A DNA stretch of 64,000 bases, from positions 27,642 through 91,641 of the forward strand of contig CAMAHK010000002.1 of assembly GCA_945834475.1 (NCBI GenBank). The letters run 5' to 3'. The stretch's first letter is position 1. Each line of letters opens with the position of its first letter. Origin of the DNA: an uncultured Verrucomicrobiota bacterium. Its GTDB lineage: Bacteria; Verrucomicrobiota; Kiritimatiellia; RFP12; UBA1067. This document shows positions 5,004-59,439 of the stretch, in pieces. The position numbers and the translations under genes are program-made. The notes under the pieces were generated by a model. It saw only the letters and a program-made list of their open reading frames with translations, did no database searches and had not been told where the DNA came from.

Positions 5004-6163
5004 TTCGCCTGCTCCGCCTGCGGCTCCGGCTGATACATATGGATCTTGTAGCTCCGCCAGCTGTCTTTCAAGATCAGCACCGCCATCAGGAGCATTAAGA
5101 GTCCCATGAAGAAGAGCGACGCGTACTTAACGATGCAGTCCGGCACACGGCGACGAAAAACAAGCGCAATCAACGCGAAAAGGATAAGTCCGCCGTCCAG
5201 CACCGGAATCGGGAGGAGGTTGAGAACCGCCAGGTTGACGTTAAGAAAGCGCAGGAAGCCGAGACCGTCCCACGGACTCTTGCGCATCGAACGGTAGATG
5301 CCTTCCGCAATCATCACGGGCCCGCCCAGTGCTCCAGCCGTGGCCTTCGCCTCCTTCGGCGTGACAAGCCCCTTCAGGATGCGCACAATCGACCCTGCGT
5401 CCCACGCGAGCTGCTTGATCGGATTGCGATCCGGCATCCACGCGACCGCACCCGCATGATTCGTCGTCGAGAGCGCCATGATGAAATACGCACCCGACAC
5501 ATCGTTCTTCTCGGGCGTGACGGCCACCATCAGCGGATCCGCTCCCGAGCGTTCGACCGTGAAGTCCACAGTCTTGCCCCCCGAGATCTGCACCTCGGTC
5601 TGCATCTCCGTCCAGTTCGCCACGGGACGCTCCCCGACCGCGACCACTCGATCGCCCGCCTGAAGTCCAGCCTTCGCCGCAGGACCGTCCGGCAAAACAT
5701 CCCCGAGGATCGCCGGAATCTCGCCGAACCGCGCCCCCGGAATCAACGCGAGCACACACGCCAGAACAATCGCCAACACGATATTCATTGCCGGACCCGC
5801 CACAGCGACCAACAACTCCTTCCACGCCGGAATCTTCTCAGCCTCCGTACCGCGGTGCGTCTCGCCCGCGGCGCTTCCTCCTTCCCCATCCACCTGAGCA
5901 CGCGCCCCCTCCAGAGCCTTCGCGCCCTCCGGATCCACATCGGGAATCGACACATATCCGCCCAGGGGGATTGCACTGATACGATACTCGATACCATTCA
6001 CGGTCTTCTTCCAAAGCGCCGGCCCGAAGCCGATCGAAAAGGCCTCGACGCGCAGCCCCAGCTTAAGCGCCACGATGAAATGGCCGAATTCATGCACGAG
6101 AATCGCCAGGGCGAAGAGAAGCACGCAGGCGATGACGTAAGCGATGGTGATGAGGATTTCCAT
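5000..6163 (-). CDS. rseP: RIP site-2 metalloprotease RseP
   Basis: HEFGHF zinc motif in the first transmembrane segment, PDZ-like middle region and C-terminal LDGG. Start chosen at MEILITIAY (ATG at 6161-6163). Contains an in-frame repeat encoding SAAGETHRGT. Confidence 0.85.
   Translation of the reverse strand: MEILITIAYVIACVLLFALAILVHEFGHFIVALKLGLRVEAFSIGFGPALWKKTVNGIEYRISAIPLGGYVSIPDVDPEGAKALEGARAQVDGEGGSAAGETHRGTEAEKIPAWKELLVAVAGPAMNIVLAIVLACVLALIPGARFGEIPAILGDVLPDGPAAKAGLQAGDRVVAVGERPVANWTEMQTEVQISGGKTVDFTVERSGADPLMVAVTPEKNDVSGAYFIMALSTTNHAGAVAWMPDRNPIKQLAWDAGSIVRILKGLVTPKEAKATAGALGGPVMIAEGIYRSMRKSPWDGLGFLRFLNVNLAVLNLLPIPVLDGGLILFALIALVFRRRVPDCIVKYASLFFMGLLMLLMAVLILKDSWRSYKIHMYQPEPQAEQAK
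5846..5873. repeat. Family-A palindromic element, intragenic and in frame (rseP)
   Basis: CGTACCGCGGTGCGTCTCGCCCGCGGCG. Confidence 0.7.
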
Positions 6164-6206: not shown

Positions 6207-7355
6207 TTAAGTTCTTAGAAATGACTGCGTCCAGCGGACGGCTTCGTCGACGGCGGCGAGGGAATCGCAGGCGAAACGCGGGGCCTTTTCCAGCGACTCT
6301 TCGACGAGCCGCGCGATGTCGGTGTAGGCGATGCGTCCCTTGAGAAACGCATCGACCGCCCATTCGTCCGCCGCCGCGAGAACCGCCGTCGCACAGCCGC
6401 CCCTCGCGAGCGCGTCCTTCACGAGCCGCAGGCACGGGAAGCGCACGGGATCGGGCGCACGGAACGTGAGCGTCGCAAGCTTCGCGAGATCGAGCGTCTC
6501 GCGCTTGCTCGGCAAACGGTCGGGCCAGGTGAGCGCATACTGGATCGCCACGCGCATGTCGGGCGGCGAGAGTTGCGCGAGCGTCGCGCCGTCCACGAAC
6601 GTGACGAGCGAATGCACGATCGACTCGGGATGCACCACGACATCGATCTGGTCGTAGCCGACGTCGAAAAGCCACTTGGCCTCGATGACCTCGAAGCCCT
6701 TGTTCATCATCGTCGAGGAGTCAATCGTCACCTTCGGGCCCATCTTCCAGCGCGGGTGATCGAGCGCCTCGGCAACCGTGACCTTCGACAAGTCCGCCGG
6801 CCCGTCCAGGAACGGCCCGCCCGAGGCCGTCAGAATCAGTTTGGAGACGCCGTGGGCGAGACGCACCACGGTACGTGGTGGGGTCAGCATCGTACCGCGG
6901 TGTGTCTCGCCCGCGGCACTCACCCAGCACCCTGTCGCCAGACACTGGAAGATCGCCGAGTGCTCGCTGTCGACCGGCAGGAATCGGACACCCTTCTCCG
7001 CCGCGCGCTTCGTCACGAGTTCGCCGGCCATGACCATCACTTCCTTCGTCGCGAGGGCGATATCCATACCCTTGGCGATTGCCGCCAGGGTCGGCCTAAG
7101 CCCGCTCATGCCGACCGTCGCCACAAGGCAGATGTCGGCGTCGTTTTCCTCGACCGCGCGCACAGCAGCGTCTTCGCCGACATAGGCACGGCAGCCGAAT
7201 TCGGTCGCCAGCGCTTCGCACTTCTCCTTGGATCGCAGAGCCGCTAACGCGACGATTTCAAAGGCGTCTGGATGTGACCGAACGACATCGATCGCATTCA
7301 TGCCGATCGACCCCGTCGCTCCGAGTATGATGAGTCTTTTTCTATCCGCCGTCAT
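6207..7355 (-). CDS. dxr: 1-deoxy-D-xylulose-5-phosphate reductoisomerase
   Basis: Signature LGATGSIG...HP and full-length similarity. ATG at 7353-7355 (TTG three bases upstream). Contains an in-frame repeat encoding VSAAGETHRGT. Confidence 0.9.
   Translation of the reverse strand: MTADRKRLIILGATGSIGMNAIDVVRSHPDAFEIVALAALRSKEKCEALATEFGCRAYVGEDAAVRAVEENDADICLVATVGMSGLRPTLAAIAKGMDIALATKEVMVMAGELVTKRAAEKGVRFLPVDSEHSAIFQCLATGCWVSAAGETHRGTMLTPPRTVVRLAHGVSKLILTASGGPFLDGPADLSKVTVAEALDHPRWKMGPKVTIDSSTMMNKGFEVIEAKWLFDVGYDQIDVVVHPESIVHSLVTFVDGATLAQLSPPDMRVAIQYALTWPDRLPSKRETLDLAKLATLTFRAPDPVRFPCLRLVKDALARGGCATAVLAAADEWAVDAFLKGRIAYTDIARLVEESLEKAPRFACDSLAAVDEAVRWTQSFLRT
6891..6917. repeat. Family-A element, intragenic and in frame (dxr)
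   Basis: CGTACCGCGGTGTGTCTCGCCCGCGGC. Confidence 0.7.
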
Positions 7356-12611: not shown

Positions 12612-12685
12612 TGGAGCGGGCGATGGGAATCGAACCCACGTAAGAAGCTTGGGAAGCTCCTATTCTGCCATTGAATTACGCCCGC
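12612..12685 (-). tRNA. tRNA-Gly (CCC)
   Basis: GCGGGCG acceptor, anticodon loop TTCCCAA, T-loop GGGTTCGATTCCC and an encoded CCA. Confidence 0.8.
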
Positions 12686-12708: not shown

Positions 12709-12800
12709 TGGCGGAGAGAGAGGGATTCGAACCCCCGATACCCTTGCGGGTATGCATGATTTCGAGTCATGTGCATTCAACCAGGCTCTGCCATCTCTCC
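12709..12800 (-). tRNA. tRNA-Ser (CGA)
   Basis: 92 nt with GGAGAGA acceptor, anticodon loop CTCGAAA, long variable arm CATACCCGCAAGGGTATC and an encoded CCA. Confidence 0.8.
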
Positions 12801-15905: not shown

Positions 15906-15933
15906 CGCCGCGGGCGAGACGCACCGCGGTACG
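15906..15933. repeat. Family-A element, intergenic (rluA-family gene to aminotransferase)
   Basis: GCCGCGGGCGAGACGCACCGCGGTACG. Confidence 0.7.
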
Positions 15934-15938
15934 GAGCG

Positions 15939-17138
15939 TCAGGTGAGCATTTTGGCGATGCGCTCGGCGGCGATTTTGATCTTCTCGAGGGAGGTCGCGT
16001 ACGACATGCGCACGAAACCCGCGCCGCATGTGCCGAAAGCCGAGCCCGGCACGACGGCGACGCCGTAGTCCTTCAGGAGCTTCATCGCAAAATCCTCGTC
16101 GCTCATTCCCGTCGAACGGATGTCGCAGAAGATGTAGAACGCGCCCTTCGGCATCACGGTCTTGAGCCCCATCGCATTCAATGCCGGCACGAGGAAGTCG
16201 CGGCGCTTCTGATATTCACGACGCATCCGCTCGACGTCCGTGTCGCCGAAGTCCATTGCCTCGACACCGGCGGCCTGCGCAAGCGTCGGGGCGGACATGA
16301 TGCCGTACTGATGGATCTTCATCATCGCGTCGATGACGTCCGCCGGCCCACAGGCGTAGCCGAGACGGTACCCCGTCATCGCCCAGCTCTTCGAGAAGCC
16401 GTTGAGGAGAATGACGCGGTCACGATGTTCCGGGAAGGCGGAGAAGCTGGGGAGAAAATGCTGTTCATCGCCGCGGCCGAGGACGGCTCGCGGTACGGTA
16501 TAGTTCAGCTCGCTATAGACCTCATCGGCCAGGATCAGGAGATCATGCCGCTCCGCAAAGGCGAGAATCTCGGCCATGTCGGCGCGGCTCAAGACGGCAC
16601 CTGTCGGATTGCACGGAAAGTTGAGGAGCATCGCCTTCGTCTTCGGCGTCACCTTCGCCTCGAGCGCGGCGACCGTCAGGCGGAACTCATCCTCAGCCCG
16701 CGTCTCGACGCAAACCGGTACGGCGTGCGCCAGCCGGATCGTCGGCGCATAGGAGACAAAGCACGGCTCATGGTAGAGGATCTCGTCACCTGGCGAGCAG
16801 ATCGCTCGGATCGCGAGGTCGATCGCCTCCGAGACACCCACCGTGACGAGCACTTCCTTCGTCCAGTCGAAGGACGAGCCAAAGCGCCGCGTCAGATAGC
16901 GGCAGATCGCCTGACGCAGATCGGGTGTGCCGAGGTTGGACGTGTAATGCGTACCGCCATTCTCCAGGCACGTCACCGCTGCACGCGAAATGTGCCAAGG
17001 CGTGTCGAAGTCCGGTTCGCCGACACCAAGCGACACCGTATCCTTCGACTGCGCAACGATGTCGAAGAACTTGCGAATGCCACTCTTCGGCAGTTCGGCC
17101 ACATGCGGCGCAACGCGCGATCTCTTCTCCATTGCCAT
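15939..17138 (-). CDS. Class I/II PLP-dependent aminotransferase (aspartate aminotransferase-like)
   Basis: SKSWAMTGYRLGY lysine motif. Contains an in-frame repeat. Confidence 0.75.
   Translation of the reverse strand: MAMEKRSRVAPHVAELPKSGIRKFFDIVAQSKDTVSLGVGEPDFDTPWHISRAAVTCLENGGTHYTSNLGTPDLRQAICRYLTRRFGSSFDWTKEVLVTVGVSEAIDLAIRAICSPGDEILYHEPCFVSYAPTIRLAHAVPVCVETRAEDEFRLTVAALEAKVTPKTKAMLLNFPCNPTGAVLSRADMAEILAFAERHDLLILADEVYSELNYTVPRAVLGRGDEQHFLPSFSAFPEHRDRVILLNGFSKSWAMTGYRLGYACGPADVIDAMMKIHQYGIMSAPTLAQAAGVEAMDFGDTDVERMRREYQKRRDFLVPALNAMGLKTVMPKGAFYIFCDIRSTGMSDEDFAMKLLKDYGVAVVPGSAFGTCGAGFVRMSYATSLEKIKIAAERIAKMLT
16469..16498. repeat. Family-B element, in frame in the aminotransferase gene
   Basis: CGCCGCGGCCGAGGACGGCTCGCGGTACGG. 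Confidence 0.7.
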
Positions 17139-17140
17139 CG

Positions 17141-18358
17141 TCAGTTGATCTCCACAATCGCGCCGCCGCTCAAACGCGACTTTTCGGCGGCAAAGCAGAT
17201 GAGGTGGCTTTGCAGGGCCTCGGCCGTCGTCTCGCGAATTTCGTCCGCGTCGTTCCGCCGCAGGATGCGGATCATCTCCGCGACGAGGTTGAAGTCGCCG
17301 CCACCGTGACGCGAGGGATTCGGGATGCGGTAGTTCGTTGGAACCCCCGTCTCGACCGAATTACCGTCAAAGCGCGTGACGTCGAGGTTCTCGCCGTCAC
17401 CGATGATCTCGCCGCGCGTCAGCGCGATGCGCGTCGTACGGATGTTCTGGTGGGTAAAGCCTGTCATCACGTGGCTCACCGTCGCACCGCCCTCGAATTC
17501 CATCGTCACGGTCTGGTGATCAGGGACGTTGTTATCGCTCGAATAGACGCACTTGCCGTATTCCGTCTCTTCGATGAGCCGCGCCATCGCCGCGTCGGAA
17601 TGGTCGGCAAAGAGATACTTGAGCTCGTCATGCGCGCAGTACATGTTGCGCGCGCTCCAGACGCAGCGCTTCTCGATGGACGGTGGACAGTCCACGCAAC
17701 GCGAGGCAGCGCCCTTCGGCATCATCTCCTTGCGGAAGAGCTTGATCGAGCCGAAAGACGAAACCTTCTTACACTTCTTGCCGCCCATCCACCAGACGAA
17801 AAGGTCGAGGTCGTGTGAGCACTTCGCGAGAATGATCGGCGAACTCTTTTTCGAATTCGCCCAGTTGCCACGCACATACGAGTGGGCGACCTTCCAGAAG
17901 CCGGCCGATTCCTGATGCGCGATCGAGACGACCTCGCCGAGCTCACCGGAATCGATCAGCGCCTTGATGTGCGCGAAATACGCCGTGTACCTGAGAACGT
18001 GCCCGATGATGACGAGACGCTTCATCCGGAGCGCGCAGTCAATCACCTCGCGGCACTCCTGCTCCGTGGGCGAGATCGGTTTCTCCAAGAGCAGATGATA
18101 GCCCGCCTCAAGCGCCATGATCGCCGGCTCGTGATGGAGCGCGTCGGGCATCGTGATCATCACGATGTCCGCCTCGGGCTTCTCCGCGAGACACTCCCGC
18201 CAGTCCTTCCAATATTTCGGCGCGGAAATGACCTCCGCCTGGTCGGGATCGGCCACGCCGACGATTTCGAGCTGATCCGGATGCGCGGCGGCATACTCGG
18301 CATACGCGCGACCGCGGTAGCCGGCGCCCAGAACGATAGCCTTAAGCTTGCGTGACAT
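17141..18358 (-). CDS. Gfo/Idh/MocA-family NAD(P)-dependent oxidoreductase
   Basis: N-terminal Rossmann fold LKAIVLGAGYRG and family-typical length. Confidence 0.75.
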   Translation of the reverse strand: MSRKLKAIVLGAGYRGRAYAEYAAAHPDQLEIVGVADPDQAEVISAPKYWKDWRECLAEKPEADIVMITMPDALHHEPAIMALEAGYHLLLEKPISPTEQECREVIDCALRMKRLVIIGHVLRYTAYFAHIKALIDSGELGEVVSIAHQESAGFWKVAHSYVRGNWANSKKSSPIILAKCSHDLDLFVWWMGGKKCKKVSSFGSIKLFRKEMMPKGAASRCVDCPPSIEKRCVWSARNMYCAHDELKYLFADHSDAAMARLIEETEYGKCVYSSDNNVPDHQTVTMEFEGGATVSHVMTGFTHQNIRTTRIALTRGEIIGDGENLDVTRFDGNSVETGVPTNYRIPNPSRHGGGDFNLVAEMIRILRRNDADEIRETTAEALQSHLICFAAEKSRLSGGAIVEIN

Positions 18359-22785: not shown

Positions 22786-22827
22786 TATTTGCCGGCGTCC
22801 GTGGACGCTCGAACTGACCGAGTACAT

Positions 22828-26178: not shown

Positions 26179-26309
26179 GACTTCCCTCCCTCGGCGACAT
26201 CGGCCTCCACGCCCTCGCCCTAATCCTTGCCATCGTCGTCTATCACATCGTCAAAAACGAGACCCATCACTTCGAACCGACTCATGACCGAACCCTCTTC
26301 GCAGACTGA
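26175..26309 (+). CDS. Small hypothetical membrane peptide (44 aa)
   Basis: ATG overlaps the cdaA stop (ATGA) and the peptide has a hydrophobic core LHALALILAIVVYHIV. It overlaps the chosen ftsK start, so it is weak. Confidence 0.2.
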   Translation: MRLPSLGDIGLHALALILAIVVYHIVKNETHHFEPTHDRTLFAD

Positions 26310-28935
26310 CAACCACAGCATCTTTGCCTGGCTTCTGTTCCCGCTCGCCATCTTCCCCCTGATGGCGCTTCTCACGTATGACGCCCGCGTCTACACCGAA
26401 TTGCCGGCTCCGCCCACGTCCAACTGGATCGGTGCGCTCGGCGACGCCTTCGCGCATTACGGATACCTCCTTTTCGGTCTCGCGATCTGGATCGTCCCGA
26501 TCCTCTGCGTGATCGCCGGCTTCTGCCTCGTCCGCGGACGCCGCATGCGCCCTGGGCGGCGCGAACTCTGGTTCTTCGTCTTCCTCTCGGCCGTCGCCTG
26601 CCTCGTTCAGGCCCTCGGCGACCATGGTGGACTCGTGGGAGTTCTGACCGAGCAGCTGAACATTCCCGATGCGGGCGGCGTGGTCGGCTACCTCCTGATG
26701 ACCCGCGCCCTCGCACCGCTTCTTTCCGACTTCGGCGCCTCGATCGTCATTGCGATCCTGGCCGTCATCGCCCTTATCGGGGCCGTCGGCGCCCACAACC
26801 TCGTCGCCTTCCTCGCCGCGATCTTCCATTGGGCAATGAGGGGCTCCGCAGCCGCACGTGCGGCTGCTAACGATAAAGTTAGAGCGATGCGTGATGAGCG
26901 GAGTGCAGAAGGTTCTTCTGACAACGAACCAGATCCGTACGAAGCGATACGCGCCGCCAAGGAAGAGGCACGGCGTCAGCGCGAGGAAGAGAAGGAACGC
27001 ATCCGCCAGGAGAAGCTCCGCATCAAGGAAGAGAAGCGCGCCCAGAAGGAAGCTGAGAAACTCGCGAAGTGGGAGGCCAAGCACAGGCTTGAAAGCGCCG
27101 CGGGCGAGGACGCACCGCGGTACGATGCCGCCCCCGTACCGCCGCCCGTCTCGGGCGCGGCCTCCCAAACGCCCTCCCCGTACCGCGGTGCGTCCTCGCC
27201 CGCGGCGTCTCTAGGCGACACGCCGCCTCCCCCCGAGGACAAGGGGCCCTACCAGCTGCCCTCGCTCTCGCTTCTCAATCCCCTCAAGAAGTCATCCGCC
27301 GACCATGGCGACGTCAGCGAGACCTCGCGCAAGCTCGTCGACACGCTCAAGCTCTTCGGCGTCAATGCGGAACTCGCCTACACGGTGCAGGGTCCTGTCG
27401 TCACGAAGTACGCGCTCACGCCCGAGCCGGGCACGCGTCCCGAGAAGTTCCTCGCGCTCCAGAACACGCTCATGATGGCGCTCAAGGCGAAGTCGCTCCG
27501 CATCGAGGCGCCGATCCCTGGCGAGGACAAAGTCGGCATCGAAGTCCCCAACCGTGCGCCAGCCGGCATCTCCTTCCGAGAGATCATCGAGTCGGACGCC
27601 TGGAAGAAGTTCAAGGGCGAGCTACCTCTTCTCTTTGGCAAGAAGGCGGACGGCACGGAGCTCGTCGCCGACCTCGCCTCAATGCCGCACATGCTCGTCG
27701 CCGGCGCGACGGGCCAGGGCAAGTCGGTCTGCCTCAACTCACTCATCAACGGTCTTCTCATGACGAAGACGCCCGAGCAACTGAAGCTCATCATGGTCGA
27801 CCCGAAGTCCGTCGAATTCACGGCGTACGCCTCGCTCCCGCACCTGATCGTCCCCGTCATCACGGACAACAAGAAGGTCGTCTTCTCGCTCCGCTGGGCT
27901 GTCGCCGAAATGGAGAAGCGCCTCAAGCTCTTCGCGCGCGCCCGCGTGCGCAACATCTATGACTTCAACCACCGGCCGTCCTTCACCCAGACGGACATGT
28001 TCGGCAACGACACGGCCGTCAACTCGTCGATGCCGAAGACCGTTCCCTACATCGTCATCATCATCGACGAAGTTGCGGACCTCATGGCCTCGAACGGCAA
28101 GGAGGTGACGCCCGACATCGCGCGCATCACCGCGAAGGCGCGTGCCGCCGGCATCCACATGATCCTCGCGACGCAGCGTCCGGATGCGAAGATCATCACG
28201 GGCACGATCAAGGCGAACATCCCCGGCCGCGTCGCGTTCAAGACCTCGCAGGCCATCGACTCGCGCACGATTCTCGACGACTGCGGTGCCGAGAACCTCA
28301 TCGGCCGCGGTGACATGCTCTTCAAGGGCAAGGACGGCCTCCTCGTGCGCGCGCAGGGCGCGTGGATCTCTGATGAGGAAATCGCCCGCATCACCGAGTT
28401 CATCGAAAAGCACTCCAACACAGAATTTGACGACCGCTTCACCAAGAAGCTTGCGACGATCAAGGAAGAGGAAGTCGACCTCTTCGCCGACGACGAGCCC
28501 AAGACCAGCGGCGACGACGCGAAGGAGGCGGCCGCCGTCCAGCGCGAGCAGGTCAAGGCCGAGGAGAACGCGAGCGACTTCAAGAAGGCCGTCGAATGCA
28601 TTATCAACACGAACCGCGCCTCGACCTCCCACTTCCAGCGCAAGCTCGGCTGGGGCTACAACCACTCGGCGAAGATCATGGACATGCTCGAGGATGCCGG
28701 CGTGATCGGTCCACAGGTCGGCGCAGGGCCGCGCCAGATCATCATGGACCAGGACCAGCTCATGGCCGTCTTCAAGGGCGAAGCTTCCGCCGCAGCCTCC
28801 GACGATGCCTTCGACCCCGTACCGCCGCCCGTCTCGGGCGCGGCGGGCAACAGCGACAACGAGAACGTCTTCGACGGCCGACAGCCGACAACCGACGACC
28901 CCTTCGCCGCTCCATCAGACGAAGAAGAATTCTAA
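26284..28935 (+). CDS. ftsK: DNA translocase FtsK
   Basis: N-terminal transmembrane helices, a long linker and a C-terminal motor with Walker A GATGQGKS and a gamma domain. The linker contains a nested palindromic repeat. Confidence 0.9.
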   Translation: MTEPSSQTDNHSIFAWLLFPLAIFPLMALLTYDARVYTELPAPPTSNWIGALGDAFAHYGYLLFGLAIWIVPILCVIAGFCLVRGRRMRPGRRELWFFVFLSAVACLVQALGDHGGLVGVLTEQLNIPDAGGVVGYLLMTRALAPLLSDFGASIVIAILAVIALIGAVGAHNLVAFLAAIFHWAMRGSAAARAAANDKVRAMRDERSAEGSSDNEPDPYEAIRAAKEEARRQREEEKERIRQEKLRIKEEKRAQKEAEKLAKWEAKHRLESAAGEDAPRYDAAPVPPPVSGAASQTPSPYRGASSPAASLGDTPPPPEDKGPYQLPSLSLLNPLKKSSADHGDVSETSRKLVDTLKLFGVNAELAYTVQGPVVTKYALTPEPGTRPEKFLALQNTLMMALKAKSLRIEAPIPGEDKVGIEVPNRAPAGISFREIIESDAWKKFKGELPLLFGKKADGTELVADLASMPHMLVAGATGQGKSVCLNSLINGLLMTKTPEQLKLIMVDPKSVEFTAYASLPHLIVPVITDNKKVVFSLRWAVAEMEKRLKLFARARVRNIYDFNHRPSFTQTDMFGNDTAVNSSMPKTVPYIVIIIDEVADLMASNGKEVTPDIARITAKARAAGIHMILATQRPDAKIITGTIKANIPGRVAFKTSQAIDSRTILDDCGAENLIGRGDMLFKGKDGLLVRAQGAWISDEEIARITEFIEKHSNTEFDDRFTKKLATIKEEEVDLFADDEPKTSGDDAKEAAAVQREQVKAEENASDFKKAVECIINTNRASTSHFQRKLGWGYNHSAKIMDMLEDAGVIGPQVGAGPRQIIMDQDQLMAVFKGEASAAASDDAFDPVPPPVSGAAGNSDNENVFDGRQPTTDDPFAAPSDEEEF
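27097..27208. repeat. Family-A' nested palindrome (~112 bp), in frame in the ftsK linker
   Basis: Left arm GCCGCGGGCGAGGACGCACCGCGGTACG and right arm CGTACCGCGGTGCGTCCTCGCCCGCGGCG flank the core CCCCGTACCGCCGCCCGTCTCGGGCGCGG. The same 30-bp core recurs at 28815-28844. Confidence 0.75.
28815..28844. repeat. Solo 30-bp core of the family-A' element, in frame in ftsK
   Basis: CCCCGTACCGCCGCCCGTCTCGGGCGCGGC, identical to 27131-27160. Confidence 0.65.
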
Positions 28936-30793: not shown

Positions 30794-30833
30794 CCGTACC
30801 GCGAGCCGTCCTCGGCCGCGGCGGGTAAAAGCC
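30794..30833. repeat. Family-B element filling the zinc-ribbon/nuclease intergenic spacer
   Basis: CCGTACCGCGAGCCGTCCTCGGCCGCGGCGGGTAAAAGCC then AAAATG. Near-identical to the rsmE copy, including the GGGTAAAAGC tail. Confidence 0.7.
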
Positions 30834-32651: not shown

Positions 32652-32726
32652 CCGAGTACATGTTGCGGTGCGACGAAATTTTTGTTAAAATGTGCTTATC
32701 ATCTCTTCAAGGGGAGAAATCATACT

Positions 32727-35700
32727 ATGAAAACATTGAAAATTGTCGTCAGTTCGTTGGCAATCGGCGCACTGTGTCATGCGCTGCCAGCTGCCGATGT
32801 CATCAGTCTCAACTTCGGTTCCGGCAACGGAGCGGTCGGGAATACCACCGCATACGGCATCGTTCCGGCGACCAATTGGTTCAATCTAGCTGCTGCAGGC
32901 AACACCCGTACCGACATCACCTCGATGAACGGCCGATTGCTCGGGAATCTCGTTTGGAATTGCAAAAATACATATCAATATACTGACGGCATTACCGACA
33001 ACGCTCTCAAGGGCTACCTCGATGACGGCGACAGCGGCAACGTCATCACGATTGCCTTGACCGGTATTCCCTTCGAGTACTACCGGGTAATCGTCTACCA
33101 GGCGACCGACACGCCGAATGCGCAGTTCAACCCGCCCTCGCTCAACGGGGTTTTCTATTCGTATGACGGCGGCAAGAAGTCGATGGTGCGCAACAATACT
33201 TTTCTCAAATACGGCAGCTCGCGAAATGCCACGGCCGTGGTCGGCACCAATGTTGCCGAATATCAGCGCGTCTTCAGCGGCGACATGACTATTCTTGGCG
33301 GCGGCAGCATCAATAATAATGGAGTGCGTGGATGCATCGCCGCCGTGCAGATTGTCGAGGCTGATAGCTATACTGCCACGCTGACGGGCGATAGCGATTT
33401 CAATAACTTGACCTGGTCGCCCGAAAAGCCGGCTGATGGCTTTGCCGCTGGATCGGTTTTGAAGGTAAATTATGCAGGCGATACGCCCGTTACATTGAAG
33501 GCGAACGGCGATTATTCCGGCTTGGGACTCGCAATTTCCGGACCGATTGCGCTTAAAACTACGACTCGTATCAAGACGGCTTGCGTTTCGTTCGACAACG
33601 GAGCCTCGCTTGATCTTTCGGCGATGGCGATTGACGAAACGGCCAAGGCTGCCGTGCGCGGCGTGCCGGCGGCGACGGACTTCATTCTCGGCGAGTTGGA
33701 CGCCGCGTCGGTTTCGGTAACGCTCCCGACGGTGGAGGCTGGCTACAACGTCGCGCTCGATACGGTTACCGGCTTTGGTACGCGTCTCGTGGTGACAGCC
33801 CCCAACAGTGCCGAATTCCGTTCGGTCAACTTCAACTTCTCGCGCACGTTCGACAATGCGGAATTGACCGATGGCGCGAGGTATGGTCTCCATCAAGTCG
33901 CCAAGGAAAACTGGAAAGTCGTCGAGACCAACGGCGAAGGCAAGGTGGTCGCGACTGTGTCGAACGGCGTGACGCTGACCCCGACCATCACGAACCTGGC
34001 GCTCGACACATCCGACATGGGCGTTGGCCTGTTCGACGGCGCCGTCAACGACAACCCCAATAACGACGAGTCGACCGCCACGTACGGGTTTACGCTTTCA
34101 GGCATCAATACGGCCGTGGGCGGGAAGTACCGCGTCATCGTCAACATGATTTCGAATCAGGGCAATGGCTTTTCGCCCGTGTCGATCGGCGGTAAAAAGT
34201 ACCACGGAACCGGCGCAACGGCCGGGGCGACGATGTCGTCCGCCGATGAAGTTCGCTGGGGTACGCTTTCCGCGAATTCCATGGCGACCGAAGGCTTGAA
34301 TACGGTAGTTTCAGACGTTCTGACCGCAGACTCAGTGACGGTCGAGACCTGCCGCAATTACACTCAATACGGCGCGCGTGCTAGCATTTGCGCCTTGCAA
34401 GTCGTCGAAGTCGGCGAGCTTGCGCATTTCGAGGCGGTTGCTTTCACCGCCAATTTGACGGGCGATGCGACGTGGGGCGCGAAGACCGGCTTGTCGGATC
34501 CGAGCGCGGAATGGAAGAATGGCGCTGACAATACTATTACGCTCACCAATACCGCGAGCGCGGCGGAGATTACCCTGACGATCGACTCGTCGATCGTCGC
34601 TAAGTCGTTCAAGATCGTCTCCCCGGCCGGACATCGCGTGTTGATTGCGCGTACCAACGGCGCAACCATCGACGTCGATTCGCTCGATTTTGTCGAAGCT
34701 CCCAGTTTCGTTGTCTACACCAATCCGGTGTCGGCGCTCGCGTCGGATACGGTAGTCAACCGCGCTTGGGGCGGCGGCAATGCCGATCCCGAGCAAGCCA
34801 TTGCCATCGAGCACAACGGCGGCGAACTTAATCTCGTCGGCGGCATCTGGAAACTCCAGCAGTCGAATAACGGCACTGCCACGAGCGTTCGGATGGTCGA
34901 CGCTTCAGTTGCCTACACCGACGTGCTGGGCATCGGCACGGCGAGCTACTACCTTGGCGGCACGACGGCAGTGACCACGCCGAGCCTCGTGATCTCGCAA
35001 GGCGCGGCCGGGCGCACCGCTTTACTCGAACTCGCCGACTCTTCTTCCGTAACGGTAACTGGCAATACCTCCGCCGACCAGAACACTTCTTCGGTCATGT
35101 TCGGTCACTGGAACGGACCCGGCACATTCACCATCAAGGACAGCGCCGCCTTCACCGCGCCGGGCGATGTGCTGGTGGGTCTGACTAGCAATCGACAGAC
35201 GATTAATATCGAGGGCGGCACTTTCACGGCACGGGGCATAAAGCTTTCTGTGAACGCTACTGGTACGAATATCCTTAATTTCAACGGCGGCGTTTTGGCG
35301 CTTGGAGAGACTGGTATCGGTACCTATTCGGCGCAACGCACGATGCAAATTAACATCAGCAATTCGCCGGAACTGCGCGCGACGGCGGCGACGCTGCCGA
35401 TTGCCGAGCCGGTAAATATCGCCGCCGGCGCTACGCTGAATTTGACCAAAGCCGAAGGCGTCGAAGCAGCGACCGTCACGATGTCCGCCGCCGTGACCGG
35501 CGAAGGCGCCATCAACGTCGGCGCAGGTGTTACGCTCAAGCTCGTGGGCGCGGCGATGGAGGGTACGCTCGGCTCGGTTGAAGGTGGTCTCACCTTCGTT
35601 GCTTCTGCGGCGCAGCTCGTCGATGGTGTCATCACGATGGCGACGACGCAGGACAACTATGACGGGGCGACGATCACCGTCGTCAATGAAGCCGGCGAGG

Positions 35701-37169
35701 TTGTCGAGCACACGGCGGCGGTTGCCCACGGCGTGTTGACGCTCACGCTCTCGGTCAACAGTTTTGTCGATGCGAACACGTCGACGGCCGAGTGGGACTC
35801 GGGAATGACGGGCTATGTCACCGTCAAGAACACGGGCGATGAAGCGACGACGCTCACCATCAGCACGATCCCGTCTGGCGTCACCGCGATCAATGTGTTC
35901 GGCAAGGTCGACATCGTCTTCACCGAAGATGCGGTGGCGTGCGGGGTTCCGGTGCAACTCCAGTCGGGTGCCGAGGTCACGGCGTCCGGCGCGGTAAAGA
36001 ATCCGATGACTGTTCCGGCGGGTACGACGCTCACGGTGGCGGGCGAAACTTCGTCCGTTGACGCGCTCGTTTCCGTTTCGGGTGGTGAAGTTGTCATCGA
36101 CGGTACGGTGACGGCCAATGCGCGTATCGTGATTCCGAACGGTTCGACGCTTACGGTGAAGCCGGGCGCGACGCTCAATCTGACGTTGAACGAGCAGTTC
36201 AGCGCTGTGGCGGGTAATGCCGTGAACGGAACCTACAATATTTACGGCACGCTCAATCTCGGTTCGTCGCGCCTTAACATGAACAATGCGCACGATACCT
36301 GCTGGTTGAATCTCTATGCGGGCTCGATCATGACCGGTACGGATGAAGCGTGGTTCAACATGACGGGCGGCTGGGATCCGTGGATCTACATCAAGGCCTT
36401 CCCTGAAGCCGTGAACCAGTTTGTCACGTTTGACGTCCACTACGGTCATGGAGATTACAACGCGAACCCGAAGTGGAAGATGGAGAACGGCTCGGGCGTC
36501 GGACTCAAGATCCTGAAGACGACGAACAACTCCGAGACGCTCATCAAGGACACGACGAATGTCGGAGGCCTCGAACTTGCGGGCAACGTGAAGGTGCAGA
36601 TGCCTGAGGCCGAGCGCGGACTCCGCGGTGCGGTTGTGATCGGTGCGGGTACGAAAGTCACGCTGACGCGGAACGACTCGATCAGCTACGATCAGAATCC
36701 GAAGACGACGCTTGATATCGCCGGCATCCTCGATTGCGGCGCGTTCCGTCAGACGCTCTTCGAGGACAACACGATCACGCTGCGCGATGGCGGTCAGATC
36801 ACGGGTGCGGGCGCTGATTACAACAGCGAATACACGGCGGCGCTTGACGTGTGCCGTGCGCTGACGATCAAGGTCGCTGGGACGGCGACGATTGCGGGTC
36901 CGGTGGCGCAGCGTAATGCTGAGAGCGTCATCACGATCGCGCCGGTCGATGCCGAGATGAAGGGGACGCTCGTCCTTTCCAATCCGATCATCCGGTCGTC
37001 GCACATCGACCTTCAGCCGGGGGCGAAGGTTCAGCTGCCGTCGACGGTTAATGCGTCGAAGGTCATTACCACGGCGCGCGGCAAGATGATTGTTGCGAAG
37101 CCTGCGGCGACGGAAGGACAGACAATCTATCGCACGGCCAACAAGTCGTTTACCTTCATCATCCAGTAA
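32727..37169 (+). CDS. Giant secreted repetitive protein (1480 aa; beta-helix or autotransporter-associated beta-strand-repeat-like), function unknown
   Basis: GGGGAG Shine-Dalgarno sequence 10 nt upstream and a signal peptide MKTLKIVVSSLAIGALCHALPA. Sequence is Gly/Thr/Asn/Val-rich with degenerate repeats. No PEP-CTERM or autotransporter barrel was recognised. Confidence 0.6.
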   Translation: MKTLKIVVSSLAIGALCHALPAADVISLNFGSGNGAVGNTTAYGIVPATNWFNLAAAGNTRTDITSMNGRLLGNLVWNCKNTYQYTDGITDNALKGYLDDGDSGNVITIALTGIPFEYYRVIVYQATDTPNAQFNPPSLNGVFYSYDGGKKSMVRNNTFLKYGSSRNATAVVGTNVAEYQRVFSGDMTILGGGSINNNGVRGCIAAVQIVEADSYTATLTGDSDFNNLTWSPEKPADGFAAGSVLKVNYAGDTPVTLKANGDYSGLGLAISGPIALKTTTRIKTACVSFDNGASLDLSAMAIDETAKAAVRGVPAATDFILGELDAASVSVTLPTVEAGYNVALDTVTGFGTRLVVTAPNSAEFRSVNFNFSRTFDNAELTDGARYGLHQVAKENWKVVETNGEGKVVATVSNGVTLTPTITNLALDTSDMGVGLFDGAVNDNPNNDESTATYGFTLSGINTAVGGKYRVIVNMISNQGNGFSPVSIGGKKYHGTGATAGATMSSADEVRWGTLSANSMATEGLNTVVSDVLTADSVTVETCRNYTQYGARASICALQVVEVGELAHFEAVAFTANLTGDATWGAKTGLSDPSAEWKNGADNTITLTNTASAAEITLTIDSSIVAKSFKIVSPAGHRVLIARTNGATIDVDSLDFVEAPSFVVYTNPVSALASDTVVNRAWGGGNADPEQAIAIEHNGGELNLVGGIWKLQQSNNGTATSVRMVDASVAYTDVLGIGTASYYLGGTTAVTTPSLVISQGAAGRTALLELADSSSVTVTGNTSADQNTSSVMFGHWNGPGTFTIKDSAAFTAPGDVLVGLTSNRQTINIEGGTFTARGIKLSVNATGTNILNFNGGVLALGETGIGTYSAQRTMQINISNSPELRATAATLPIAEPVNIAAGATLNLTKAEGVEAATVTMSAAVTGEGAINVGAGVTLKLVGAAMEGTLGSVEGGLTFVASAAQLVDGVITMATTQDNYDGATITVVNEAGEVVEHTAAVAHGVLTLTLSVNSFVDANTSTAEWDSGMTGYVTVKNTGDEATTLTISTIPSGVTAINVFGKVDIVFTEDAVACGVPVQLQSGAEVTASGAVKNPMTVPAGTTLTVAGETSSVDALVSVSGGEVVIDGTVTANARIVIPNGSTLTVKPGATLNLTLNEQFSAVAGNAVNGTYNIYGTLNLGSSRLNMNNAHDTCWLNLYAGSIMTGTDEAWFNMTGGWDPWIYIKAFPEAVNQFVTFDVHYGHGDYNANPKWKMENGSGVGLKILKTTNNSETLIKDTTNVGGLELAGNVKVQMPEAERGLRGAVVIGAGTKVTLTRNDSISYDQNPKTTLDIAGILDCGAFRQTLFEDNTITLRDGGQITGAGADYNSEYTAALDVCRALTIKVAGTATIAGPVAQRNAESVITIAPVDAEMKGTLVLSNPIIRSSHIDLQPGAKVQLPSTVNASKVITTARGKMIVAKPAATEGQTIYRTANKSFTFIIQ

Positions 37170-37172
37170 GGC

Positions 37173-37203
37173 GGTACCGCGGGCGAGGGCGCCTCGCGGT
37201 ACG
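37173..37203. repeat. Intergenic palindromic element (CGTACCGCG...CGCGGTACC type) directly after the giant gene stop
   Basis: GGTACCGCGGGCGAGGGCGCCTCGCGGTACG. It shares termini with the intragenic family and could act as a terminator hairpin. Confidence 0.6.
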
Positions 37204-37333
37204 ATAAACGCGCGGGGGATCGAAAGGTCCTCCGCGTTGCTTTATGGTCGATATTGCCGTGGGCTTTGATCGCGATGTTGTTGCATTAACTTTGTCAATC
37301 GACCCCAACAAGACGAACTCCTGCATTGGGTGC

Positions 37334-40300
37334 CTACATTTCCCACGGCTTCGGTTCGCGCGGCGCGAGGCTCACGCGTTCATCGGGACGGAACGAAAGG
37401 TCCGTCTGCGGCACGATCTTCTCGAACTCGGAAAGGAACGAGAGTGTCGGATTGAGACGGAAACCCGGTCCCAGATCCACATCAAGGATGCGTCCGTTCG
37501 GATAGTGAAGCTCGACGAGCACCGGGAAGTTTCCGGGACTGCGCAGGATCGAATCGCGCACCGCGTTCACCTTCGCCTTAATCTCCGGATCTTCATACCG
37601 CATCTTGAAGCGCAAGCCCTTCGAGATGAGCGGCAACGCCGTCGCGAGCGGATAGACCTCCTTCGCACTGAACGAAAGATCGCCGAGTTGCGGATTGAGC
37701 TTCTGCGGATCGTCGTTCGCATAGGTCGTGCGATAGGTGACCTCGCCGCAGACAACGACCAGCTGCTCGAGCTCGTGCTCGATCGTCCCCTGCTCGCCGT
37801 TGAACTGCTTCCACGGCTTGCCGAAGCACATCGCCTCGCCGAATCCCGTGCCGTCGTCAAGCCCGAGAATCGCCCACTTCTCGCCAACGGACCCGTCGGG
37901 ACGCGGCTTCGGGATCTTGATCGAACACGAGGCGAGCTGCGCGATGACGCGCACCTCAAGTCGCTTCAAGAGGAACGGACTCAGCTCTTTCTTCTCAAAA
38001 CGCTTCTTGAGCTTCGCCTTCTCGGCATTGACCGCCTTATCGAACGCGACCTTGTCGCTCCATGAAACCTCGCCCTTTGCCCGGACGATGTTCCGTGCCA
38101 GCCCCTTGAGCTGCCACTCGTCGTCCTTGCCCTTCATCAGCATCTCTTCAATCGGCGACAACTTCACCGCCGCCTCGGCCTCCGATGCGTCTTCGTCTTC
38201 GGAATCGCCACCTCCACCTTCGACCTCAACCTCTTCCTCTCCACCTTCGACCTCAACCTCTTCCTCTTCCTCTTTCTTCTTCGCGATCATGTCGAGGGTG
38301 AACGGCAGGGTTTCGATCGTATCTTCCTTCGCGCCCGGGGCACGGGTACGGATTACGGCGATGGAACCTTCGGCGATCAGCTTGCGACAAGGCGAGAGCG
38401 GATTGCCCGAGATGTACACGCCACAGAGATCACGCTCGTTCTTGAGGTCCTCGGCCGGCGAGAACGGCGGGGTGTCGACGAGTTCCGCGTCGGAATACGT
38501 CTCCTTGCCGCCGTCCGCAAGCATGTCAAAGAAGTTCGCCTGAACGCTCGCATTCTCCTTCGCGCGTCCCTGCGCCTTCTTGAGCGCGAACTCGATGTTG
38601 TTGTAAAGTTTCGCACGGTTCGGTTCGATCGTCGAGAACGCGCCGACGCGCGTCAGGTTTTCGAGGACGCGCTTGTTGACGACATTCGAACCCGCGAGGC
38701 GCATGCAGAAGTCGAGGAATCCCGTGTACGGACCGTTCGCCTCGCGCTCCGCGACAATCGCCTCGGCCGCCGCGCTACCGACGCCCTTGATACCGCCAAG
38801 ACCGTAGCGGATGCCCTTCGCGTCCGGCGTCGGCACGAAGCGTGCGCCGGACTCGTTGACGTCCGGAAGCTTCAGCTCGAGGTTAATCGCCTGCGCTTCC
38901 GCGACGAAGCCGGGGAGCTTGTCGAAGTTGCCGATTTCGGACGAGATCTGCGCGCACATGAACTCGGCCGGATAGTGCGCCTTCAGGTAGCCGGTCTGGT
39001 ACGCGACCCACGCGTAGCAGACGGAGTGGGACTTGTTGAACGCGTATGAGGCGAACGCCTCCCAGTCCTTCCAGATCTTCTCGATGAGGGCCGTCGCCTT
39101 CCCTTCGTCCGTCAGTTCGCCGATGCGGAACTTCGGATTCGCGAGACACCCCTTGATGAACTTCGCCTTCAGCTCGGCCATGATGTCCATGAGCTTCTTG
39201 CCCATGGCCTTGCGGAGCTTGTCCGACTCGCCGCGCGTGAACCCCGCGAGGTCACGCGAGAGCAACATCACCTGTTCCTGATAGACCGTGATGCCGTACG
39301 TATCCTTGAGACGGCTCTCCATCTCGGGATGGTCGTAGACGACGGGCTTCCGTCCCTGCTTGCGATCAATGAAGTCGGGGATGTACGCCATCGGGCCCGG
39401 ACGGTACAGGGCGTTCATGGCGACGAGGTCCGTGAGCTTTTCCGGCTGCAGCGCCATGAGGTACTTCTTCATGCCCGCTGATTCGAACTGGAAGAGTCCC
39501 GTCGTCTCGCCACGGCCGAAGAGCTCGTACGTCTCAACGTCGTCGTCCGGAATGTTGTCGGGATTGAGGAACCCGTCCGGTCCGCGCAGGAATTCGGGAA
39601 CGCGCGGATTGTCCTTGCCGAGCAGCGCGACGCACTCCTTCTCGACCGAGAGCGTCTTGAGTCCTAGGAAGTCCATCTTGAGGAGGCCGACCGGTTCCAC
39701 GAAGTGGCCGTCGTACTGCGTCGTCAGGAGCTTCTCCTGCTTAGGCACCCCTTCACCTTCGCCCTTCACCTTCTTCCCCGCCCCGCCTTTTTCCGGCGTC
39801 GGCATCACGGGAAGCGTCTCCGCGATCGGATCGCGCGAGATGATGACACCGCAGGCATGCACGCCCGGCTGACGGATGCAGCCCTCGAGGCGTCCCGCAC
39901 GTTCCATCAGCTTGTGGACGACGGGATCGTCGGAGTTGAACGCGGCGTCAAGATCAGGGGACGCCGCGCGGGCCTTTTTGAAGTTGATCTTCGGGACTTC
40001 CGGGACGTACGAGGCGAGCTTGTTCGTCGCGGCGAGCGGATAGTCCATCACGCGGCCGACATCCTTGATCGCCGACTTCGCGGCCATCTGTCCGAACGTC
40101 ACGATATGCGCGACGTGGTCGGCGCCGTACTGACGCGTCACATAATCAAGCACGCGTTCGCGTCCCGCATCGTCGAAGTCGACATCGATATCCGGCATCG
40201 AGATTCGGTCGGGATTCAGGAATCGCTCGAACAGGAGGTCGTACTTAATCGGATCGACGTTCGTGATCCAAAGCGCATACGCGACAGCCGAGCCCGCAGC

Positions 40301-41638: not shown

Positions 41639-41659
41639 GACACACCCAAGACACATGCC

Positions 41660-44451: not shown

Positions 44452-45453
44452 TTAGCGTATGAGCGTCTTTAGGTACGGGACGGCGTGGGCGAAGAACCGC
44501 TGCCAGCCGACGTCCAGTGTGCCACGGTTGCGGGGACAGTCCGGGAACTGCCGCTTGCGCAGGCCGAAATTCGCGTAGACCGGCGAGTCGAGGAGTTCCT
44601 CCCACGTGTGCGTCATCACGTTGCCGAGCTTCAGCTCGGGTATGACGTGGAAGTCGCACGGATAGACATCGCCGTTGCGCTCGACCACAAGATAGTTGCG
44701 GCAGTCGGACGCGAAATTGCACATCGTCGGCACGCCGCGCACGAGCTGCGAGACGACGGAATCAAAAAGCCGCACACTCACCGTGTGCTCGTCGCCCTCC
44801 TTGCGCCACTCGTCGAAGAGCCGGCAGAGGAACTCACCCCACTGCTCTCCCGTGATCGCATACGGCTTCGGATCCGTGCACTCGATGTACTGGTGCCACT
44901 TGCACCCGAGCTCGTCGCGGATGTAATGGTACAGCGCCTCCGGCTCATGCACGTTCTCGGCCGTAATGAGCTGGAGCACGTTGACCGGCGTCCCGGCGGC
45001 GACCAGCGTGCGGTACCCGGCAAGGCCGGACTCCGTATCGCGGTGCGTCTCGCCCGCGGCACTCTCCAAGCCGCCTTTACCCGCTGCGGGCGAGACGCAC
45101 CGCGGTACGGAGCGCCGCCAGTGCGGACTCACACCAACGAGCCAGTCCTTTTCCGCGAAAAACGCCGCCAGTGACTCCGTCACCAGCGTCGCGTTGGTCT
45201 GCACGGAGAAGTCGATGCCGTCGCCCAGCTTGGCCGCACGACGGAAGAAGCGCTCGCCCATGATAAGCGGCTCGCCGCCCTGGAAGGCGACGGTGTGCTG
45301 CGCAATCGGCAGCGCCCGGTAGGAGGTCAGCATCCGCTCCAGCACCGCGTCGGACATCGGCGCGACCTCACCGTGTCCTCGGTAGAAGCAGTAGGGACAC
45401 GCGAGATTGCAGGCCGAACCCGCGGGCTTGACGAGGAGCGAGAACTCGCGCAT
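44452..45453 (-). CDS. Radical-SAM/SPASM maturase (anaerobic sulfatase-maturating-enzyme-like)
   Basis: CNLACPYC cluster near the N-terminus and a Cys-rich SPASM region. Contains an 76-bp inverted-pair repeat in frame. Confidence 0.6.
   Translation of the reverse strand: MREFSLLVKPAGSACNLACPYCFYRGHGEVAPMSDAVLERMLTSYRALPIAQHTVAFQGGEPLIMGERFFRRAAKLGDGIDFSVQTNATLVTESLAAFFAEKDWLVGVSPHWRRSVPRCVSPAAGKGGLESAAGETHRDTESGLAGYRTLVAAGTPVNVLQLITAENVHEPEALYHYIRDELGCKWHQYIECTDPKPYAITGEQWGEFLCRLFDEWRKEGDEHTVSVRLFDSVVSQLVRGVPTMCNFASDCRNYLVVERNGDVYPCDFHVIPELKLGNVMTHTWEELLDSPVYANFGLRKRQFPDCPRNRGTLDVGWQRFFAHAVPYLKTLIR
45034..45109. repeat. Family-A composite: two inverted copies with 22-bp spacer, in frame in the anSME-like gene
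   Basis: CGTATCGCGGTGCGTCTCGCCCGCGGC ... GCTGCGGGCGAGACGCACCGCGGTACG. The terminal inverted repeats read CTCCGTA(c/t)CGCGG. Confidence 0.75.
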
Positions 45454-58578: not shown

Positions 58579-59439
58579 TCAAACCAAAACATTATCGATC
58601 AACCGCGTCTTGCCGTCGTACGCCGCGACGAGCACGCAGCATCCCTTGCCGATCTTCTTGCGCGTCTCGAGCGTCTCGGCATCAACGCATTCGACATAGT
58701 CGACCTTAAGTCCCGCCTTCGTCAAATCACGCTTAAGCTGCGCAATTCCGTACCGCGGAGCGTCCTCGCCCGCGGCGTCTCCAAGACCGCTCTTTCGCGC
58801 AGCGCCGGCCAGCTTCCTGAGTCCCCCCGAAATCGCGAGCGCCTTCGCCTTCTCCTCGGCGGAGAGGTACGTGTTGCGGCTCGAGCGGGCGAGGCCCGAC
58901 GGCTCGCGCACGATCGGCGCGACGACGATCTCGAGGTCGAAGTTGAGATCGCGCACCATGCGCTTGATGATCTGCGCCTGCTGGTAGTCCTTCTGACCGA
59001 AGACCGCGAAGTCGGCGTGAGCGAGATTGAAGAGCTTCGCGACGACCGTGCAGACGCCGCGGAAGTGCCCGGGACGCCGCGCGCCGCAGAGGCCCTTCGA
59101 GAGGTCCTCCTCGTTCACATAGACCGAGTGACGCTCAAGGTACATGTTCGTCGGCGTCGGGAAGAAGATTGCCGTCGCGCCCGCGGCCTTGCACTTCGCA
59201 AGGTCGGCCTTCTCGTCGCGCGGATACTTCTCGTAATCCTCGCCCGGACAGAACTGCACGGGATTGACGAACACCGAGACGATGATCTCGTCCGCCCCCT
59301 TCGCCTTCGCCTTCGCGATCAGCGAGAGATGTCCCTCATGCAAGTACCCCATCGTCGGCACGAGCGCAATCTTCTTGCCCGCCTTCGACTGGGCCTTCGC
59401 CCACTTCTGCAACTTCTTCGGTTCACGAAAAATTTTCAT
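58579..59439 (-). CDS. panC: Pantoate--beta-alanine ligase
   Basis: ALVPTMGYLHEGHLSL HIGH motif. ATG at 59437-59439, preceded by a TGGTATAAT box. Contains an in-frame repeat. Confidence 0.85.
   Translation of the reverse strand: MKIFREPKKLQKWAKAQSKAGKKIALVPTMGYLHEGHLSLIAKAKAKGADEIIVSVFVNPVQFCPGEDYEKYPRDEKADLAKCKAAGATAIFFPTPTNMYLERHSVYVNEEDLSKGLCGARRPGHFRGVCTVVAKLFNLAHADFAVFGQKDYQQAQIIKRMVRDLNFDLEIVVAPIVREPSGLARSSRNTYLSAEEKAKALAISGGLRKLAGAARKSGLGDAAGEDAPRYGIAQLKRDLTKAGLKVDYVECVDAETLETRKKIGKGCCVLVAAYDGKTRLIDNVLV
58749..58777. repeat. Family-A' element, in frame in panC
   Basis: CGTACCGCGGAGCGTCCTCGCCCGCGGCG. Confidence 0.7.

Follow-up and report, generated by a model that had tools for sequence, protein, structure and literature searches.

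The gene ftsK of an uncultured bacterium of the Kiritimatiellia (Verrucomicrobiota) lies at 26284..28935 on the plus strand of the 64-kb stretch of DNA analyzed here, hereafter the window. It carries a palindrome in the segment encoding the FtsK linker and, near its 3' end, a second copy of the central sequence of this palindrome (the core). We found that the palindrome and this solo core together comprise four units of a hairpin family, family-1, that is dispersed through the DNA; repeat finding, a pattern search, and an nhmmer profile revealed 18 such units in the window. These are probably selfish hairpin units of the repetitive extragenic palindromic (REP) or REPIN type, tolerated in the disordered linker and tail of FtsK. 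Read in this way, the ftsK structure is no gene-specific rearrangement device; it shows the dense colonization of housekeeping genes in an uncultured gut bacterium.

Hairpin units in the FtsK linker and tail

The FtsK protein of the window has 883 aa from the ATG at 26284 (the open reading frame [ORF] called mechanically starts at a TTG at 26227), and P0241, a member of the same FtsK cluster, is equal in length. We found 2557 homologues, the nearest of which carry the Pfam domains FtsK_4TM, FtsK_alpha, FtsK_SpoIIIE, and FtsK_gamma, and precomputed Pfam matches to PF13491, PF17854, PF01580, and PF09397 are available for P0001 (96 to 99% identical). The motor and gamma domains were nearly invariant in the orthologue alignment. 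A first-pass annotation had proposed the FtsK linker as a permissive site, and this holds for the linker together with the C-terminal tail, as orthologues with ≤83% identity share neither of the two peptide segments encoded by the repeats and have an unrelated linker sequence.

The palindrome claimed for the linker is real. It is built from a 29-nt inverted repeat (27096-27124 and 27179-27207), 100% complementary, with a 54-nt spacer between the arms, and the 112-nt region was predicted to fold as single-stranded DNA into a long hairpin with a small inner hairpin (-58.8 kcal/mol; z = -9.1 compared to shuffles). The 30-nt core, CCCCGTACCGCCGCCCGTCTCGGGCGCGGC, has exactly two occurrences on the plus strand of the window, at 27132-27161 and 28815-28844. 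The second copy, said to lie in frame about 1.7 kb downstream near the FtsK C-terminus, was thus confirmed as exact, and the start of the first was corrected to 27132. When the flanks were included, the direct match extended to 33 nt at 97%. Both core sites keep the frame of the ftsK ORF, in which they translate as ESAAGEDAPRYDAAPVPPPVSGAASQTPSPYRGASSPAAS and FDPVPPPVSGAAGN. Dinucleotide shuffles of the window (n = 100) gave zero matches for either the core or the arm. Searching the window with the arm revealed a third copy with one mismatch at 58749-58776, within panC.

Resolved into family-1 units, the palindrome starts with a reversed unit of stem type A' (27097..27125, minus strand; nhmmer E = 6e-12), which has its CGTAC tag at the right end, is read as AAGEDAPRYD, and forms the left arm. 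In sequence and reading frame, it matches the single A' unit of panC (58748..58776 on the plus strand, with the gene on the minus strand), which is likewise in frame and is read as AAGEDAPRYG. The short spacer TGCCGCCC (27126..27133, plus strand) separates the reversed A' unit from the core unit (27134..27161, plus strand; E = 6e-6), and together they make up a head-to-head heterodimer. The sequence between the two tags is alike in ftsK (ATGCCGCCCC) and in a head-to-head dimer within dxr (ATGCTGACCCCACCA). The core unit has the inner stem CGCCCG/CGGGCG and is read as PVPPPVSGAA; its 5' end CCGTACCGC and 3' end CGCGGC are common to all other family-1 units. After a 16-nt spacer (27162..27177, plus strand), which is the place of a 66-nt (2 × 33-nt) tandem expansion in other strains, the right arm follows as a forward A' unit (27178..27206, plus strand; E = 4e-10) read as PYRGASSPAA. 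The perfect 29-nt arms are supplied by the two A' units of the linker, which lie in opposite orientation. The solo core unit (28817..28844, plus strand; E = 1e-8) lies in the C-terminal tail after the gamma domain and is followed by the tail sequence GGGCAACAGC. Close behind it is a polymorphic C-terminal site (28897..28917, plus strand), where the window has 21 nt (DPFAAPS) and the alleles of P0001 and P0242 have 45 nt with a full A' unit, FDPYRGASSPAAGNS.

A hairpin family dispersed through window genes

A family-1 unit is 28 to 29 nt long and consists of a CCGTAC tag, a stem of about 9 bp interrupted by a single bulge or mismatch, a 3- to 4-nt loop, a CGCGGC(G) sequence closing the stem, and a short tail. 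The tag, CGTA followed by C (CGTAC), was invariant in 17/17 aligned units, which also share the flanking stem bases. Three types of stem were distinguished: A (AGCCG...CGGCC), A'/A'' (GTGCG...CGCCC; the ftsK arms are A'), and the core type (GCCCG...CGGGC), which was found in ftsK alone. In the alignment of 17 units, 92.4% of the stem cells formed standard pairs, versus 32 to 56% when the partners were slid against each other. One stem pair is G-C in nine units and C-G in seven, and one of the Dxr units has a compensated change from C-G to U-A. The observed covariation score was reached by 0/500 shuffles, which supports the view that the hairpin itself is conserved, probably under selection.

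The solo units end in one of two types of 3' tail, GGGTAA(A/C)AGC or GTCTCCAAG-like, which are mutually reverse complementary, and both types are present in the spacer of a tail-to-tail dimer at 45033-45110. The tails appear to derive from such a dimer spacer, and many singletons therefore resemble halves of dimers, which is also on record for REPINs. An Rfam scan of the window matched nothing but three tRNAs, with none of the repeats assigned to a known RNA family; the tRNA genes are all on the minus strand, at 8977-9058, 12615-12685, and 12712-12800.

As judged from Pfam scans and translations, 15/18 family-1 units, at 10/13 loci, are intragenic and in frame. Besides ftsK and panC, single units lie in rseP (5845..5872, plus strand), in rsmE (9950-9978, with a partial copy at 9984-10015), in recD2 (13869-13897), and in the genes for a class I/II aminotransferase (16470-16498) and a RumA/TrmA-like methyltransferase (55471-55499), all in frame. 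The gene dxr contains the head-to-head dimer mentioned above (6849..6917, with units at 6849 and 6890), also in frame and the nearest structural parallel to the ftsK palindrome, and the tail-to-tail dimer (45033..45110, with units at 45033 and 45083) lies within a minus-strand radical-SAM/SPASM gene, likewise in frame. Non-coding family-1 units are found at 15907-15934, 30794-30822, and 37177-37205. Two very large ORFs converge at 32652-37169 (plus strand, about 1500 aa) and 37334-41659 (minus strand, about 1440 aa), and the Pfam scan gave no match for two smaller ORFs, 17547-17912 and 41837-43066.

The intragenic units use at least five reading frames in both orientations and give rise to peptides as different as AAGEDAPRY, AAGETHRGT, AAAEDGSRYG, PYRGASSPAA, PVPPPVSGAA, PRTVVRLAHG, VPRCVSPAA, and TPRPGTARGTV. 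This argues against selection for one peptide. It could be hypothesized that PVPPPVSGAA, PYRGASSPAA, and AAGEDAPRY are functional motifs selected in FtsK, for example as proline-rich interaction sites, considering that both cores are read in the same frame and stand in FtsK segments where short linear motifs could act. However, other proteins carry this DNA unit in at least five different frames, copies of it lie outside genes, FtsK orthologues lack the peptides, and conservation is seen at the level of the DNA, including synonymous positions and the covariation of the hairpin. We therefore rejected a role as peptide motifs, which is largely refuted by the multi-frame reading and which we consider hardly credible.

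A second, unrelated family, family-2, has GGGG as its tag, CTCYT as its loop, and a stem of 8 bp in which compensating variants occur. Its 10 units form five inverted dimers (10439-10499, 14264-14327, 15373-15442, 49055-49124, and 55927-56003), all in frame in genes, namely, rsmE, recD2, and those for a pseudouridine synthase, an alanine racemase, and the RumA-like methyltransferase, where they are read as RRDKSVSPP...QRGRGTLASPQ. Taken together, the two families have placed inserts in about 11/47 window genes.

This placement does not reflect a preference for coding DNA, which we rejected as an explanation since 25/28 genic units match the expectation at a coding fraction of 0.85 to 0.95. The genic location is thus consistent with placement that is random with respect to coding, the notable feature being that the units are not depleted from genes. 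An adaptation to coding through six stop-free frames was rejected as well; composition-matched shuffles did equally well in 15 to 84% of cases, and GC content explains the openness of the frames.

Variation among strains and lineages

The species is present in pig-gut metagenomes, for example ERZ940786 and ERZ13405076. Strains were compared using two contigs from other samples that are 98.5 to 98.8% identical to the window and cover about 18 kb in total. Within this stretch, all indels of ≥12 nt inside genes were located at family-1 units. In L001, the ftsK linker has an additional 66 nt at window position 27167, corresponding to two extra 33-nt units, each made up of the spacer and the 5' half of A', and DNA alignment with the same contig showed that in the C-terminal tail of ftsK 21 nt were swapped for 45 nt (+24) containing a complete A' unit. 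The C-terminal end of rseP differed by +36 nt between strains. A 12-nt indel, GACGCTCGAACT, was also seen at window 22804-22815 compared to L001 (98.8% identical), outside the hairpin families. L001 is syntenic with the window up to about 32650.

The ftsK alleles were examined further among the four full-length members of a 90% cluster. The window type, P0241 (883 aa), has one PYRG-type linker unit and no C-terminal A' unit; P0001 and P0242 (both 913 aa) have three linker units and a C-terminal A' unit; and P0244 (906 aa) has three linker units and lacks the C-terminal A'. All differences between the four alleles were confined to these two repeat sites, and their combinations show that the linker and the C-terminal site vary independently. 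The Dxr dimer was identical in 7/7 same-species alleles. The ftsK sites are therefore more changeable than other insertion sites, and this allelic variation would be due to the disordered, unconstrained nature of the linker and the tail.

The first-pass annotation had suggested that ftsK may be a hotspot in which repeat-mediated recombination could delete or invert about 1.7 kb including the motor domain. Under such a scenario, recombination between the direct cores would delete the segment and recombination between inverted units would invert it, so that the motor would be lost or flipped in part of the population. In favor of this, the cores match exactly over 30 nt (97% over 33 nt), they are spaced by 1683 nt (561 codons), so that a deletion would stay in frame and might occur as a rare event, and small-scale instability of the region is evident. 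Nor need a deletion be lethal, as the C-terminal motor of Escherichia coli FtsK is not essential for viability. However, 30 nt is a short substrate for homologous recombination, and the near invariance of the motor and gamma domains across orthologues points to strong purifying selection on both. In none of the four full-length same-species alleles was the 1.7 kb between the core copies missing or inverted; all of them keep the motor in its normal orientation, and variation is limited to local gains and losses of units. The large deletion or inversion was thus not borne out, and we consider a hotspot of this kind very unlikely. What stands is that the ftsK sites vary among the alleles of the species, but the idea of a device specific to ftsK does not, since its arms and core are ordinary members of a dispersed family.

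Presence and absence of the units were also compared between lineages. In Dxr P0122 (97% identical over the aligned region; DNA of L014, 91%), the sequence LAGG-GAVDKLIL replaces the 25-residue dimer segment of the window, a net difference of 75 nt, and the L014 contig also has 18 nt fewer at the rseP unit. In PanC P0253 (L018; 89% nucleotide identity), the unit is absent, with a net difference of 42 nt. All six length differences measured between strains and lineages (66, 24, 36, 75, 18, and 42 nt) are multiples of 3, as would be the case if the inserts were translated and selection eliminated any variant that breaks the frame. A profile search of the sister-lineage contigs found zero family-1 units, and the same search of same-species contigs returned all the expected ones. 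Judging by these sequences, the family-1 units would have arrived after the split from the sister lineage.

According to alignments with solved structures, the Dxr insert falls between SEHSAIFQCL and LTASGGPF, in a variable loop, and that of PanC close to the C-terminal domain, where the segment is likewise variable. For Dxr, an AlphaFold model made from a shallow alignment had a mean pLDDT (predicted local distance difference test) of 74.6, with much of the conserved fold at high confidence and values of <50 over residues 135 to 174, which include the insert; the model is compatible with a floppy loop and carries little weight. In a related genome, units with a quite different stem are present in the Dxr loop and also in rseP, with the layout of a hairpin plus GTACG kept, which hints that the tag may be a conserved recognition feature. 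Unrelated repeat-like inserts were also observed in the Dxr loop and the PanC segment of other Kiritimatiellia (L016:856-966 and 2367-2407; L017:6652-6765 and 3160-3199; P0266, P0278, and P0284), comprising tandem GGGGCGCGAGGTCGCGCCCCGTACGA hairpins, inverted arrays of the heptamer TTTCGAG, and VGVGS or KTLK peptide repeats. From their sequences, the Dxr and PanC loops seem to have been colonized repeatedly, with different repeat families involved. Where the window has its panC unit, a distant panC orthologue (L019:766-1596; 80% nucleotide identity) has GCCGCCGGGGAG--CAGCGGTACGG, with a 6-nt internal deletion. Since this appears to be a partly deleted unit, the site was either long occupied or occupied more than once.

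Some of these observations could be explained differently, by an old, immobile set of hairpins homogenized by gene conversion, in which seemingly new copies arise by the overwriting of decayed ones and the second ftsK core arose by intragenic conversion or duplication. The polymorphic sites are replacements rather than clean insertions, and by hand comparison the unit-free alleles weakly resemble the unit (with matches at 15/21 positions for ftsK and 11/18 for rseP, both at the C-terminus, and at 16/29 for panC), although these similarities are near the level expected by chance for GC-rich coding DNA. The partly deleted unit retained at the panC site in the distant lineage would fit such a history. 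So would the two core copies, which share five additional 5' bases and belong to a variant found nowhere else, and the extra C-terminal unit of L001, which is flanked like the upstream core copy. Against this, the sister-lineage contigs have no recognizable unit at four orthologous positions, and the units are found in many unrelated genes with unrelated flanks and must have reached those sites somehow. We therefore regard conversion of an immobile set as an unlikely explanation for the family as a whole.

Proposed mobility of the units and known systems

Under the interpretation that we favor, REP/REPIN-like units would have spread recently through this Kiritimatiellia lineage, moved as single-stranded hairpins by a tyrosine transposase (HUH/Y1, similar to the REP-associated tyrosine transposases [RAYTs]) that is presumably encoded elsewhere in the genome. 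Copies in genes would have survived only when the net change in length was a multiple of 3 and when they encoded a peptide rich in Gly, Ala, Pro, Ser, or Arg in a loop, linker, or tail. Such copies would be read through and translated as passenger peptides, and the inserts would be neutral. In the FtsK linker and tail, units would then be prone to expansion, loss, or replacement, for which slippage or recombination involving neighboring units is a plausible cause. The family itself, the covariation of its hairpin, its in-frame location in genes, its presence or absence between lineages, and the indels between strains are direct observations; the mode of transposition and the neutrality of the inserts are inferred.

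Several points weigh against this interpretation. No Y1_Tnp domain was detected among the 29 window ORFs scanned (two very large and several small ORFs were outside the scan), and the sole transposase of the window is of the DDE type and unrelated to the repeats. The CGTAC tag is neither the GTAG nor the CGTC of the known REP superfamilies, and the copy number of family-1 is a count within the 64-kb window only. At the ftsK, rseP, dxr, and panC junctions, neither a clean, identically flanked empty site nor a target-site duplication was seen; the alleles compared at these junctions were 9 to 11% diverged, and old target duplications could have decayed. At three of these sites (ftsK, rseP, and dxr), the allele with the unit has it in place of 13 to 21 nt present in the other. 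These data fit transposition no better than they fit gene conversion, imprecise deletion, or decay, and some of the dynamics may be due to conversion between copies or to hairpins being deleted imprecisely. The second core copy of ftsK may likewise have arisen by intragenic copying, with no separate insertion.

The DDE transposase is encoded by an IS4-like ORF at 62245-63999, reaching to the end of the window, and has AT-rich sequence upstream with a 12-nt inverted repeat at 61787-61798 and 61828-61839 (region 61780-63999). Derivation of the units from this transposase as MITEs (miniature transposable elements with inverted repeats) was considered and found no support, as by eye the upstream sequence resembles neither repeat family. 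MITEs are defined by terminal inverted repeats plus a target duplication and by an origin from an insertion sequence of the same genome, a combination not found for the units.

Searches of metagenome contigs with the exact core and the A and A' master sequences gave no matches. A degenerate family pattern gave, among the matches listed for genome contigs, single matches only, in unrelated high-GC genomes. The exact 28-nt core was observed once in a metagenome-assembled genome (MAG) of the Gemmatimonadales (74% GC; L005:2584-2611), with no repeat family around it, and we treated this match as a coincidence in very GC-rich DNA.

A more far-reaching proposal is that the units belong to a class of tagged hairpins that lives mainly in genes, is moved by a dedicated enzyme recognizing CGTAC, and has repeatedly colonized the loops of Dxr, PanC, and FtsK in this lineage and, with other repeat families, in its relatives. 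We advance this only as a tentative idea with a small chance of being right. If true, such elements would permanently provide variation, in frame, in the loops and linkers of about one-fifth of all genes and would represent a distinct life-style of mobile DNA, not stray REPs. The ftsK feature alone is of modest interest, and the density of in-frame inserts and the repeated colonization of loops in related lineages are more notable. Should the window be typical, about 1 gene in 5 would carry an insert, which is more than 10 times the densest case reported. In the annotation of MAGs and in protein modeling, such inserts appear as unexplained loops. The ftsK sites differ between strains that are about 99% identical, which is of use for strain typing, and for the spread of REP-type elements, there are presence/absence alleles and a new tag that might serve in finding the enzyme.

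A literature search combining Kiritimatiellia with palindromic repeats yielded nothing relevant. Among systems known from other bacteria, family-1 resembles REPs and Rickettsia palindromic elements (RPEs), yet it departs from them in features by which they are defined, namely, the tag and the genic location for REPs and the length and single peptide for RPEs. Repeat-rich FtsK linkers are one point of reference, such as that of E. coli, which is Pro/Gln-rich. These linkers are, as here, of low complexity, variable in length, and tolerant of repeats, but their repeats are local tandem peptide repeats, whereas those described here are copies of a dispersed DNA hairpin element.

In-frame insertion into protein-coding genes is shared with the RPEs, the classic example of palindromic inserts that lie in frame in unrelated housekeeping genes and are tolerated as extra peptides (PMC10969869). 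RPEs are, however, about 100 to 150 bp long and AT-rich, with one conserved peptide per family, whereas the units of the window are about 29 to 45 nt long, GC-rich, and read in many frames. The host of family-1 also differs, being a gut bacterium with a GC-rich genome.

A survey of REPs (Di Nocera et al. 2013, PMC3733652) has described units tagged with GTAG or CGTC, sub-variants of the stem, and homo- and heterodimers in both head-to-head and tail-to-tail arrangement. The same work reported that intragenic REPs encode 7 to 30 residues and that intragenic GTAG units are most numerous in Opitutus terrae, a relative of the Kiritimatiellia within the Planctomycetes-Verrucomicrobia-Chlamydiae (PVC) group. 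With REPs and with O. terrae in particular, family-1 has in common a unit of 20 to 40 bp, an unpaired terminal tag, a stem-loop with compensating sub-variants, dimers, some genic copies, and a PVC host. At 28 to 29 nt with a 9-bp stem, the units fall within the 20- to 40-bp stem-loops with 5- to 13-bp stems that characterize REPs, and with 18 units in 64 kb they are dispersed in many copies. Head-to-head dimers (dxr, 6849/6890; ftsK, 27097/27134) and a tail-to-tail dimer (45033/45083) are both represented. The tag CGTAC resembles both GTAG and CGTC but matches neither. Whereas REPs are mostly intergenic, the units are here mostly intragenic (15/18 for family-1 and 10/10 for family-2). Even in O. 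terrae, about 70 intragenic entries were listed genome-wide, compared with about 11/47 window genes here, and the O. terrae list does not include FtsK, PanC, or alanine racemase (PMC3733652).

REPINs consist of two inverted REP units that fold, with a short spacer between them, into a long hairpin (Bertels and Rainey 2011, PMC3116915). Those of Pseudomonas and E. coli differ from the elements of the window in being extragenic and in their association with a RAYT gene that is present in a single copy and has REPs on either side. In architecture, they are matched by two structures of the window, one of 112 nt in ftsK and a 78-nt dimer at 45033-45110, with singletons that look like halves of such dimers.

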